62,227 nt of DNA from Syntrophorhabdales bacterium (GTDB lineage: Bacteria; Desulfobacterota; Syntrophorhabdia; Syntrophorhabdales; WCHB1-27), in NCBI GenBank assembly GCA_049521495.1, contig JBEKOT010000007.1, positions 1 to 62,227 on the forward strand, read 5' to 3'. The notes under the pieces were generated by a model. It did not search any database and was not told the DNA's origin. It saw only the letters and a list, made by a program, of their open reading frames with translations. A program made the translations under genes and the position numbers. How positions within the stretch are numbered: position 1 is the first letter of the stretch; every line of letters begins with the position of its first letter. This document shows positions 16,501-19,733 of the stretch, one piece after another.

Positions 16501-17121
16501 CTATGAAACCTTTTTGTACACGAAAAGCTGGTACGCCTTGTCGTTCCCCGGCAGGCTGTAACTCTCCTCGCGCTGTAATAGAAACCCCTCGTGGGCAGGC
16601 GCCTTTTGCCCCTTGCCCTTGACGATATAGGCCGATCCCCCTTCGTTGAGGTGCCTTCTTCCCTTGTCGAGGACGACAGGCACCGGGCCGAAAGCCTTTG
16701 CGATGAGAACATCGACGCCCGTGCGCGGCGCTTCTTCTATGCGACCGTGGACGATTTCCAGCCGGTCCAGACCCAGAAGCCGTTTCACATGCCTCTGGAA
16801 CTGGGCCTTCTTCAGGTTTTTCTCAACCGATACAATCCTCCTTTCGGGGTCGAGTATTGCCATGGAGACAGAGACCACGCCCGATCCTGAGCCGAGGTCG
16901 AGAAGCGACCTCGCACCGGCTATGCGCGAGTGGAGGAAAAAGGCGTCATACACGAGCTCGGCGACGACCCGGCTGCTTCCTTTGAGGCCGACTAGGTTCA
17001 TCGTCCGGCTCCACCTGTCAAGCTCTCGTACGTAAGACGCGAGACTGGAGACGCATCGGGCGCCGCACCCGATGCGGAAGTGGGCAAGGCCTTCCGCGAT
17101 CAGCTCTTCCAGACTGTCCAT
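16501..17121 (-). CDS. rsmG: 16S rRNA m7G527 methyltransferase
   Basis: WSRTMNLVG, LLDLGSGSG, KKAQF, RIEE, AKAF; adjacent to parA; start set at MDSLEE after a GGAGA SD. Confidence 0.85.
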   Translation of the reverse strand: MDSLEELIAEGLAHFRIGCGARCVSSLASYVRELDRWSRTMNLVGLKGSSRVVAELVYDAFFLHSRIAGARSLLDLGSGSGVVSVSMAILDPERRIVSVEKNLKKAQFQRHVKRLLGLDRLEIVHGRIEEAPRTGVDVLIAKAFGPVPVVLDKGRRHLNEGGSAYIVKGKGQKAPAHEGFLLQREESYSLPGNDKAYQLFVYKKVS

Positions 17122-17216
17122 GACGCACTCTCCGAGAGTGCTTCTATCTTGGCTCTTCCGTTCGGTTTCAGGGGCGCGAATCCTCGACATTAAGGTTAGC
17201 ATAAATTCTTCGTTTC

Positions 17217-17225
17217 TGTTATAGT
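17217..17225 (+). promoter_or_regulatory. Extended -10 element, probably a leaderless transcript of bamD-lptA
   Basis: TGtTATAGT followed 5 nt later by ATG 17231; no SD. Confidence 0.5.
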
Positions 17226-17230
17226 AAACG

Positions 17231-18718
17231 ATGCGCAAAAGTCTTTTAATGCTTGCTATCCTTTGCCTTACCGTTGCCTTCTGCGGCGGCAAGAAGACCG
17301 AAGTGAAAAAGGTCGACAGCCCCGGGAACCTTTACATCGAAGGTCTGGCCTTCATGAAAAAGAAAAACTACGATAAGGCAATAGCAAGCTTCAGCAAAGT
17401 CCGTGAGAACTACCCTTTCGACCCTATCGCGCTGGTTGCGCAGATAAAACAGGCGGACGCCAACTTCGATAAAAAGTCGTACGCCGCCGCCGCCGGCATC
17501 TATGAGGACTTTATCAACAGCTATCCTGAGGACGAAAACGCAGCATACGCCCTGAGGCGCCTCGCGGAATGCTACGAGAAAACGTCTCCTTCAATCGAAC
17601 GCGATCAGGCGAATACGTTCAAGGCGCTGGAGCGTTTCACCTTTTTAAAGAATCGTTATCCCGACAGCCCCTATGCCAAGGATGCCGAGGTCCATCTTGC
17701 GAACCTCACCCAGAAGCTGGCGGCCCGGGAATTCTACGTGGGCGAGTTCTACCTCAAGTACGGAAAGTATAATGCCTCCATTATGCGCCTCGAGTACTTT
17801 CTCGAAAAGTATCCCAAAGCGAAAGACAGGGACAAGGCCCTTTATTACCTGGCTCAGGATTATAGGGAGCTGCAGAACCCCGAGAAAGCACAAAGCTACC
17901 TCGACAGGCTCAAGAAGGAATATCCGAACGGCACGTACGGCCGGTCCGTAAAGCGTGAGCGAAAGACCTTGCAGGTTGCCGCTGCCAATCCGACCGTCGG
18001 CGGGGACGGAAAGGCGGCGACTGCCCGGCCGGCCGACTTTTCTTATGAAGAACAGAAGGTGAGGCAGATCGATCTCAGACCGGAGGAAACACAAAAAGGG
18101 GGCGAGACTGAGGCAAAAGCTAGTGAAAGCCCGAAAGGCTCGGTCCAGGCTCCGGCCGGAGGGCCGGGCGGATCATCGCAAGCACAGGCGGGAGGGCAAG
18201 AAGCCCGCAAGACCGCAACGGCTGCGCGTCAGGAAGCGCCGGCTGCAGCAGGCGCCGCGAGCGACGGAGAGAAGCAGCAGTCGAAAAAAACGGGCGACAA
18301 AAAAGACTCCCTCGGATTCTTTTCCGAAAAGAAGCCGGTCGATGTGGTGGCCGACACGATGGAAGGACTGGAAAAAGGGAAGATCATCGTCTTCAAGGGC
18401 AACGTTATTGCCAAGCAGGTAGACCTCTACCTTTTTTCTGACATGCTCACCGCATACATAAATGAAGAGACGAACGAGATCGACAGAGCCAAGGCAGAAG
18501 GTAACGTGAAAATCGTCAAGCTCGATAGAACGGCGACCTGCAAAGAGGCCTTTTTCTACAACGATAAAGGCGAGATCATCCTGCAAGGGGACGTTGTCGT
18601 TTTCTCCGGCAATGACAGGGTCTCGGGGAACACGGTTACCTACTACATAAACGAGGACCGGGTCCACGTGGAGGGCGAGAAAGACAAGAGGGCCAAGGCG
18701 CTCATCACGCCCAAGTAA
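17231..18718 (+). CDS. bamD: BamD-LptA(OstA)-like fusion protein
   Basis: TPR BamD motifs (NYPFDP, ERDQ, YPDSPYA, LAAREFYVGEFY) to about 17970; A/G/Q/E-rich linker; LptA-like beta-jellyroll (VDVVADTME..FKGNVIAKQ..SDML..AEGNVKI..SGNTVTY) at 18330-18718; one uninterrupted ORF. Confidence 0.88.
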   Translation: MRKSLLMLAILCLTVAFCGGKKTEVKKVDSPGNLYIEGLAFMKKKNYDKAIASFSKVRENYPFDPIALVAQIKQADANFDKKSYAAAAGIYEDFINSYPEDENAAYALRRLAECYEKTSPSIERDQANTFKALERFTFLKNRYPDSPYAKDAEVHLANLTQKLAAREFYVGEFYLKYGKYNASIMRLEYFLEKYPKAKDRDKALYYLAQDYRELQNPEKAQSYLDRLKKEYPNGTYGRSVKRERKTLQVAAANPTVGGDGKAATARPADFSYEEQKVRQIDLRPEETQKGGETEAKASESPKGSVQAPAGGPGGSSQAQAGGQEARKTATAARQEAPAAAGAASDGEKQQSKKTGDKKDSLGFFSEKKPVDVVADTMEGLEKGKIIVFKGNVIAKQVDLYLFSDMLTAYINEETNEIDRAKAEGNVKIVKLDRTATCKEAFFYNDKGEIILQGDVVVFSGNDRVSGNTVTYYINEDRVHVEGEKDKRAKALITPK

Positions 18719-18739: not shown

Positions 18740-19075
18740 TTACGCTGTCTTGGCAAGCACCTTCTTGATGAGGCTGTCTACCGTCCCCTTCGGGACGGCC
18801 CCGACGACACGGTCCACAGCCTCGCCCTTGTGGAACAAGATGAGCGTCGGTATGCCTCTAACACCGAATTTTGAAGGAGTGAGGGGGTTAGAGTCGACGT
18901 TGAGCTTCATTACTTTGATCTTGCCTTCATACTCGTCGGCCACATTGTCGAGGACGGGCCCCATCATCTGGCAGGGTCCGCACCAGGTAGCCCAAAAATC
19001 GACCAGAACCGGAAGACTCGACTCTTCGACCTCCTTTGCAAAATCTCCGTCATTTAATGGTAGTGCCTTGCTCAT
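18740..19075 (-). CDS. trxA: Thioredoxin
   Basis: [20 protein letters not shown]; GGAGGAGG RBS. Confidence 0.97.
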
Positions 19076-19544: not shown

Positions 19545-19733
19545 CTAGAAGAGAAAGCTTGCCTTCTCTTTGCCGTTGAGAATGCCTATGTACACATCCT
19601 CGTCGGACATCTCATTGCTGCCCATTTCCTTTTTAACCTGGCTGCTTCCGCAGCTCGGGCAGAAGATGTTTTTCATGTTCAGGGGGAGGAACAAACATCC
19701 GCACAGATCGCATACGTATTCTTCTGGTATCAT
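19545..19733 (-). CDS. 62-aa zinc-ribbon microprotein
   Basis: AAGGAGG RBS; YVCDLCG...FCPSCGS motif pair. Confidence 0.7.
   Translation of the reverse strand: MIPEEYVCDLCGCLFLPLNMKNIFCPSCGSSQVKKEMGSNEMSDEDVYIGILNGKEKASFLF

Follow-up and report, generated by a model that had tools for sequence, protein, structure and literature searches.

Are the two machines that build the bacterial outer membrane ever joined in a single polypeptide? The β-barrel assembly machinery (BAM) and the lipopolysaccharide (LPS) transport (Lpt) system are two essential outer-membrane assembly machines that have been studied as separate systems, LptD being folded by BAM. The question is raised by a stretch of 62,227 nucleotides from a Syntrophorhabdales bacterium (assembly GCA_049521495.1, contig JBEKOT010000007.1; this whole stretch is referred to as the window), in which a single open reading frame (ORF) encodes the BAM lipoprotein BamD followed by an LptA-type β-jellyroll. 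This bamD-lptA' fusion is one intact, conserved gene, and its parts are located in the window as follows.

17231 to 18718, forward strand: bamD-lptA' fusion gene, a single ORF of 495 aa plus the stop codon.
17231 to 17284, forward strand: predicted lipoprotein signal peptide with the lipobox V-A-F-C (Cys18), from the alignment of homologues.
17303 to 17983, forward strand: BamD domain (aa 25-251) made of tetratricopeptide repeat (TPR) helices, from profiles and the structural model.
17984 to 18298, forward strand: disordered linker (aa 252-356) rich in A/P/K/E/G, from AlphaFold2 and composition.
18041 to 18082, forward strand: short linear motif of the linker (aa 271-284), SYEEQKVRQIDLRP, with the family core [KR]-x-I-x-L-x-P, from the alignment of homologues.
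18299 to 18715, forward strand: LptA-type β-jellyroll (aa 357-495) without a signal peptide of its own, from profiles, the model and the alignment.

The start of the gene is unambiguous, because an in-frame TAA is located two codons before the ATG. Read from the N-terminus, the 495-aa product consists of a predicted lipoprotein signal peptide, the whole of BamD, ~110 aa of disordered linker and an entire LptA-type β-jellyroll; the ORF contains neither an internal stop nor a second signal peptide. The initial annotation of this DNA had described the ORF in the same way, as BamD joined through a low-complexity linker to an LptA-like jellyroll with no internal stop or second signal peptide. The description holds for the ORF and agrees with the profile scores, the structural model, the composition of the linker and the identical contigs recovered elsewhere. 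Metagenome runs from peat, wetland and soil, at least 20 in number and drawn from various samples and studies, contain the exact 1651 bp, and contigs from three different metagenome samples show 0 differences and 0 gaps across the gene. Relatives were collected with a word-indexed protein search that returned 179 proteins, of which 120 were listed; all 120 listed proteins carry both PF13525 and PF03968. A match to the fusion was found in every one of the 96 species-representative genomes of the class Syntrophorhabdia (26 genera, four families), and BamD and jellyroll lie in one frame of ~420-600 aa in nearly all listed matches of the class, the few exceptions being long-read metagenome-assembled genomes (MAGs). 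The idea that relatives might encode two genes was thus not borne out. That a mis-assembly or a sequencing error created the fusion out of two genes is practically inconceivable: a few long-read MAGs do carry the gene broken into overlapping frames (L018-L020; G087, G078, G081), but these split cases show the stop codons and frameshifts typical of long-read errors, and the independent contigs, the at least 20 runs and the class-wide single frame rule the artefact out. The broken frames are probably homopolymer errors rather than real pseudogenes.

The first half of the protein is a bona fide BamD and the only copy of the genome. It matches Pfam PF13525 (YfiO/BamD) over aa 31-221 with 123.9 bits (cut-off 25) and NCBIfam TIGR03302 (BamD) over aa 4-233 with 200.8 bits (cut-off 81.4). 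An AlphaFold2 monomer model of the fusion protein, built on 46 homologues, places helical TPRs at residues 31-251 with a predicted local distance difference test score (pLDDT) of ~95, and a Foldseek comparison of this model with the PDB returned BamD structures at the top (3qky, E = 2.5e-14; 5d0o chain D, template modelling (TM) score 0.92, root-mean-square deviation (rmsd) 1.8 Å). The fusion is the sole strong YfiO match in the genome. A second, ordinary BamD was considered elsewhere; the next, weak YfiO match, on contig C53, proved to be CpoB/YbgF of the Tol-Pal system. The protein shares with the BamD of Escherichia coli (5d0o chain D) and that of Rhodothermus marinus (3qky) a putative lipoprotein signal with an invariant Cys, the five-TPR helical fold and the presence as a single copy alongside BamA. 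In contrast, described BamD proteins lack the C-terminal linker (~110 aa) and the 140-aa LptA-type jellyroll, and the BamD of the window strain also differs from known BamD in carrying F at the -1 position of the lipobox. For alpha-proteobacterial BamD, only a 60-residue C-terminal extension is mentioned by Anwari et al. 2012 (PMC3359395).

The second half belongs with LptA by profile, fold and phylogeny. Pfam PF03968 (LptD_N/OstA) matches aa 372-476 with 58 bits (cut-off 20.4), and the model shows an all-β domain at residues 371-491 with pLDDT ~88-94. By Foldseek this domain is closest to the E. coli LptA chains of 2r1a (TM 0.80-0.84, rmsd 1.8-2.5 Å over ~131 residues) and to Pseudomonas aeruginosa LptH (TM 0.78), LptA and LptH coming ahead of LptC and LptD, which answers the concern that the C-terminal domain might have a non-LptA fold. 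When the C-terminal domain alone was compared with PDB sequences, only LptA entries matched, LptH among them. The N-edge motif is kept (PVDVVAD...FKGNV), the C-edge strand KRAKALITP aligns with KRVTTVLVP of E. coli LptA, and the residues P369, D375, E378, F388, G390, V392 and P494 are invariant. Because a flexible linker precedes the N-edge and the C-edge is the free C-terminus, we infer that both edges are available for head-to-tail pairing. Among homologues of the class, mean pairwise identity is 62% for the jellyroll, 59% for BamD and 23% for the linker; as far as sequence comparison tells, the jellyroll is as conserved as BamD and both are under strong constraint. In phylogenetic trees, the free LptA of outgroups and all BamD-attached domains form a clade with support 97/100, with the N-terminal domain of LptD (LptD-N) and LptC apart. 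The tethered jellyroll therefore resembles E. coli LptA/YhbN (2r19/2r1a) and P. aeruginosa LptH (4uu4) in its fold over the whole chain, its clade and both edge motifs. Unlike LptA, which is a separate soluble protein, it is covalently attached to a predicted outer-membrane lipoprotein, has no signal peptide of its own, lies outside the lptC-lptA-lptB operon, between rsmG and trxA, and co-exists with a canonical LptA, either fused to LptC, as in this class, or free, as in the distant genome G102 described below.

The linker that joins the two halves is disordered in the model (residues 253-358, pLDDT <50) and variable in length, ranging from 37 to 186 aa in class homologues (median about 122) and from 32 to 320 aa when distant fusions are included. 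It nevertheless contains a short motif that is kept in 103 of the 120 homologues, with the consensus S-Y-E-E-K-K-K-R-E-I-D-L-R-P; in the 46-sequence alignment L282 is invariant, and I280 and P284 are nearly so. The alternating pattern of its residues suggests that the motif would suit an added β-strand. It was absent from 24 of 25 distant fusions, the one match being dissimilar, which rules it out as a universal feature and makes it apparently specific to Syntrophorhabdia. Docking of the motif or of the jellyroll on BamD in cis was also considered, and is unsupported by the monomer model (pLDDT <50 at 253-358; predicted TM score (pTM) 0.49).

Distant fusions were sought by an exhaustive search of 1.84 billion representatives. 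YfiO and LptD_N were combined in 16 of the 20 distant matches that were scanned (25-36% identity), and the records of distant fusions are labelled 'Deltaproteobacteria bacterium' or 'Thermodesulfobacteriota bacterium'. At least 24 clusters form a sub-family of triple or quadruple fusions (700-1135 aa), in which the jellyroll is followed by one or two NTF2-like domains (Cds6_C, DUF4440/SnoaL) and the gene lies between ftsA-ftsZ-radical SAM and tolQ-tolR-tolA-tolB-pal-cpoB (loci L114:6001-8613 and L115:6001-9408). Such BamD-LptA'-NTF2 proteins of Thermodesulfobacteriota-type MAGs (for example P0153 and P0318) are built like the window protein as far as the LptA-type jellyroll, beginning with a lipoprotein BamD and a long disordered linker, and their jellyrolls group with those of Syntrophorhabdia. 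They differ in their extra C-terminal NTF2-like domains, in lacking the RxIxLxP motif, in their ftsZ/tol-pal locus and in that at least one genome keeps a free LptA. Among the BamD loci of other Desulfobacterota (Syntrophus, Syntrophales, Desulfobacterales, Desulfobaccales) with the closest sequences, 66 encode plain BamD. Most BamD-attached domains of all lineages come together in the jellyroll tree, with a modest Shimodaira-Hasegawa-like approximate likelihood ratio test (SH-aLRT) support of 80, a topology compatible with one old fusion event. Databases name the fusion proteins either BamD or LptA, and the Prokaryotic Genome Annotation Pipeline (PGAP) calls many of them LptA. As a separate observation, a protein of 468 aa (P0239) carries three tandem LptD_N/OstA domains (PF03968, 141.6 bits, three stretches) and no BamD, and may be a single-chain multi-jellyroll protein.

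What role is left for a tethered jellyroll depends on the rest of the machinery. The genome encodes BamA (643 bits), adjacent LptF and LptG, LptB, and LptD, which is split over two contig ends. In the canonical locus the gene order is kdsD, a gene of 331 aa, lptB and rpoN, and this second gene is the following feature.

L002:1450-2445, equivalent to G000 contig C30:10708-11700 (outside the window), reverse strand: lptC-lptA fusion of 331 aa, from profile scores.

In its product, a transmembrane helix is combined with an LptC domain (63.8 bits, above the cut-off) and an LptA-like domain (58.2 bits). The check for lptA at the lptC-lptB locus thus found it there, fused to lptC, and the same LptC-LptA fusion is present in 96 of the 96 class genomes. 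The structural model has one helix followed by uninterrupted β-structure at 44-301 (pLDDT 84, pTM 0.73) and matches the LptC of LptB2FGC as well as LptA, so that the protein is predicted to be one inner-membrane-anchored double jellyroll. In outgroups, lptC (~190 aa) and lptA (~180 aa, with its own signal peptide) are separate. Searching the class with the LptA equivalog model TIGR03002 (cut-off 71.7 bits) gave mostly two LptA-type domains per genome, one attached to BamD and the other fused to LptC. The best match passes the cut-off in 73 of the 96 genomes, and every listed match above it is either a BamD-attached domain or a solo copy in the genome G050; the LptC-fused domain never passes. 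That copy (L107:201-851, reverse strand, equivalent to G050:C31) is an extra stand-alone jellyroll of 217 aa, 54% identical to the window domain, which scores 77 bits. Apart from it, frames of the size of free LptA are only pieces of split genes. Because the canonical lptA is fused to lptC in the class, an LptA-type unit that carries a signal peptide itself appears to be lacking in Syntrophorhabdia, the G050 copy possibly excepted, and the Lpt jellyrolls of the class would all be tied to a membrane. In the jellyroll trees the LptC-fused LptA-like domains fall outside the clade of free LptA and BamD-attached domains. Grouping them with free LptA is not rejected by the approximately unbiased (AU) test (p = 0.156), so that more than one duplication history of the LptA-type domains is compatible with the trees.

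In the distant genome G102, an extended fusion and LptD occur together with an ordinary kdsD-lptC-lptA-lptB operon, whose free LptA passes the equivalog cut-off. The tethered jellyroll is an additional LptA paralogue and not a substitute, because G102 keeps a free LptA alongside the fusion. The earlier idea that the fusion replaces free LptA is therefore ruled out as stated, since the canonical LptA persists, fused to LptC in this class and free in G102.

Taken by analogy with known Lpt proteins, these data lead us to propose that the BamD-tethered jellyroll acts as an outer-membrane-proximal unit of the Lpt bridge, docking beside BAM on LptD-N and/or on LptC-LptA. This is a tentative reading, to which we give slightly less than an even chance, and it builds on the established head-to-tail β-augmentation of Lpt jellyrolls and on the place of BamD in BAM. 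After Lol-type sorting, BamD would take its place in BAM on the outer membrane, and the linker would act as a leash letting the jellyroll explore the outer half of the periplasm. There the jellyroll could dock by β-strand augmentation, the head-to-tail mode in which Lpt jellyrolls associate, on the N-terminal domain of LptD, on the C-edge that LptC-LptA leaves free, or on both. The resulting chain would run from LptB2FG through LptC-LptA (two units) and LptA' (on BamD) to LptD-N. Lpt bridges would then end beside BAM complexes, where LptD is assembled, and the insertion of protein and LPS would be spatially coupled. A bolder extension, which we regard as doubtful, is that the bridge of Syntrophorhabdia has no diffusible part, consisting of LptC-LptA in the inner membrane and LptA' on BamD, so that every bridge would be nucleated at BAM and LPS and β-barrels would be inserted at the same sites; the linker motif (SYEE-KKR-IDLRP) would serve in it as a docking peptide to a partner such as the polypeptide transport-associated (POTRA) domains of BamA, LptD or LptE.

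Several observations weigh against a tethered bridge unit. The window jellyroll scores 64.6 bits with TIGR03002, or 67.8 in a six-frame search, and because this is under the cut-off of 71.7 it is filed as an LptA-family paralogous domain and not as an LptA equivalog. The monomer model (pTM 0.49) gives the jellyroll no fixed position and shows no confident docking of the linker motif. Judging from G102, a standard bridge does not require the tethered unit, whose function may then lie outside bridging. Cleavage of the linker once the protein has been exported is conceivable. Finally, the run search found no RNA runs carrying the fusion gene, and no protein data were found either.

The strongest of the other explanations, although unlikely, is that the fusion is a dedicated LptD-assembly factor, in which the jellyroll captures the nascent N-terminal jellyroll of LptD by β-augmentation during folding by BAM and acts as a built-in chaperone or quality control outside the working bridge, in a role akin to that of BepA or LptM in E. 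coli. LptD is a BAM substrate, and two preprints (bioRxiv 10.64898/2026.08.05.742645, 10.1101/2025.01.03.631273) indicate that in E. coli its maturation at BAM depends on additional factors. The E. coli proteins BepA (a TPR protease) and LptM/YifL are precedents for coupling BAM functionally to the LPS translocon. Each is a protein of its own with an unrelated fold, and neither is an Lpt jellyroll or part of a fusion with a BAM subunit. The same explanation draws on the attachment of the jellyroll specifically to BamD in every lineage and on G102, where a full set of standard Lpt genes accompanies the fusion and no tethered unit is needed simply to complete a bridge. Against this, the presence of both LptA edge strands and of an LptA-clade sequence (62% mean identity) exceeds what binding to one edge would need, and in Syntrophorhabdia there is no LptA-type unit beyond the LptC-fused one to reach LptD. 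A role in LptD assembly and a role in the bridge are not mutually exclusive.

It is rather improbable that the fusion is a precursor or co-export device, which would carry the jellyroll, lacking a signal peptide of its own, through Sec, after which a periplasmic protease would cut the linker, perhaps at the motif or close to it, and release free LptA and BamD. The linker is predicted to be disordered and protease-accessible, the stand-alone 217-aa copy of G050 that passes the LptA cut-off suggests that the domain could work untethered, and PGAP gives the name LptA to many fusion proteins. However, the fusion is kept across the class and in distant lineages with linkers of 32 to 320 aa, the distant fusions lack the motif and hence any shared candidate cleavage site, and in the extended forms the jellyroll is not freed but followed by further domains.

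Slightly less probable still is a jellyroll that handles some other hydrophobic client at BAM, for instance lipoproteins, phospholipids or the strands of unfolded outer-membrane proteins. In Borrelia and Bacteroides, such non-LPS roles have been suggested for Lpt-like modules. Reports of Lpt modules put to wider or different uses exist (bioRxiv 10.1101/2022.12.21.521298, bioRxiv 10.64898/2026.10.02.756314, PMC12065857), and the extended relatives with NTF2-like domains sit beside the Tol-Pal operon, but the domain lies inside the free-LptA clade, is the best-scoring locus of the genome on the LptA equivalog model, and the genome has a complete LPS export set.

As a natural, ancient and strongly conserved covalent link between a core BAM subunit and an Lpt-type unit, the fusion is evidence of the 'Rosetta-stone' kind for two machines working next to each other. 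Combined with the LptC-LptA fusion of the whole class, it would offer a natural example of a bridge whose units are all anchored in a membrane, and it bears on the number of LptA units per bridge, on the sites of bridge formation and on the spatial coordination of LPS and protein insertion. The components are known, and their covalent coupling appears to be undescribed: as the initial annotation had supposed, no published description of a BamD-LptA fusion was found in the full-text literature, including a survey of BAM lipoproteins across Proteobacteria (PMC3359395), which is not proof of absence. The naming of these proteins as 'BamD' or 'LptA' hides the architecture, and genomes can appear to lack one of the two.

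The anchoring of the protein at its N-terminus deserves separate comment. The initial annotation had noted that VAFC is not a canonical lipobox and that anchoring might differ. The VAFC is indeed present; a different anchoring of the family is unsupported, given that Cys18 is invariant across the family and that the residue at -1 is S, A or G in 111 of 114 homologues (S in 98, A in 11 and G in 2; lipobox pattern [LVI][ASTVI][GAS]C). The window protein alone among the 114 has F at this position, which is unusual for signal peptidase II substrates. Strains at least 90% identical carry either VAFC or VASC at this site (window 17279-17284); the two are separated by a single TCC/TTC transition and each allele occurs on several independent contigs. 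Judged from these sequences, VAFC is a real strain polymorphism and not a family trait, and the lipobox of the family is canonical.

The surroundings of the gene comprise a putative promoter and two neighbouring genes.

17196 to 17225, forward strand: promoter-like element, TTAGCA-18 nt-TATAGT with TG, from a consensus scan, ending 5 nt before the ATG.
16501 to 17121, reverse strand: rsmG, divergent, with parA and parB further upstream, from context.
18740 to 19075, reverse strand: trxA, convergent, 21 bp past the stop codon, from context.

The promoter match is sigma-70-like and the scan is weak, with one site found and 0.6 expected. Because the element ends so close to the ATG and no Shine-Dalgarno sequence is visible upstream of it, the fusion mRNA may be leaderless or nearly so. 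The fusion gene is monocistronic, because the convergent trxA lies just beyond its stop codon. The gene order on the rsmG side and on the trxA side of the fusion is kept in 13 relatives. Between trxA and a gene for a metallo-β-lactamase (MBL)-fold hydrolase, an ORF of 62 aa (window 19545-19733, reverse strand) would encode a putative small zinc-ribbon-like protein with two CxxC pairs (CDLC...CPSC).

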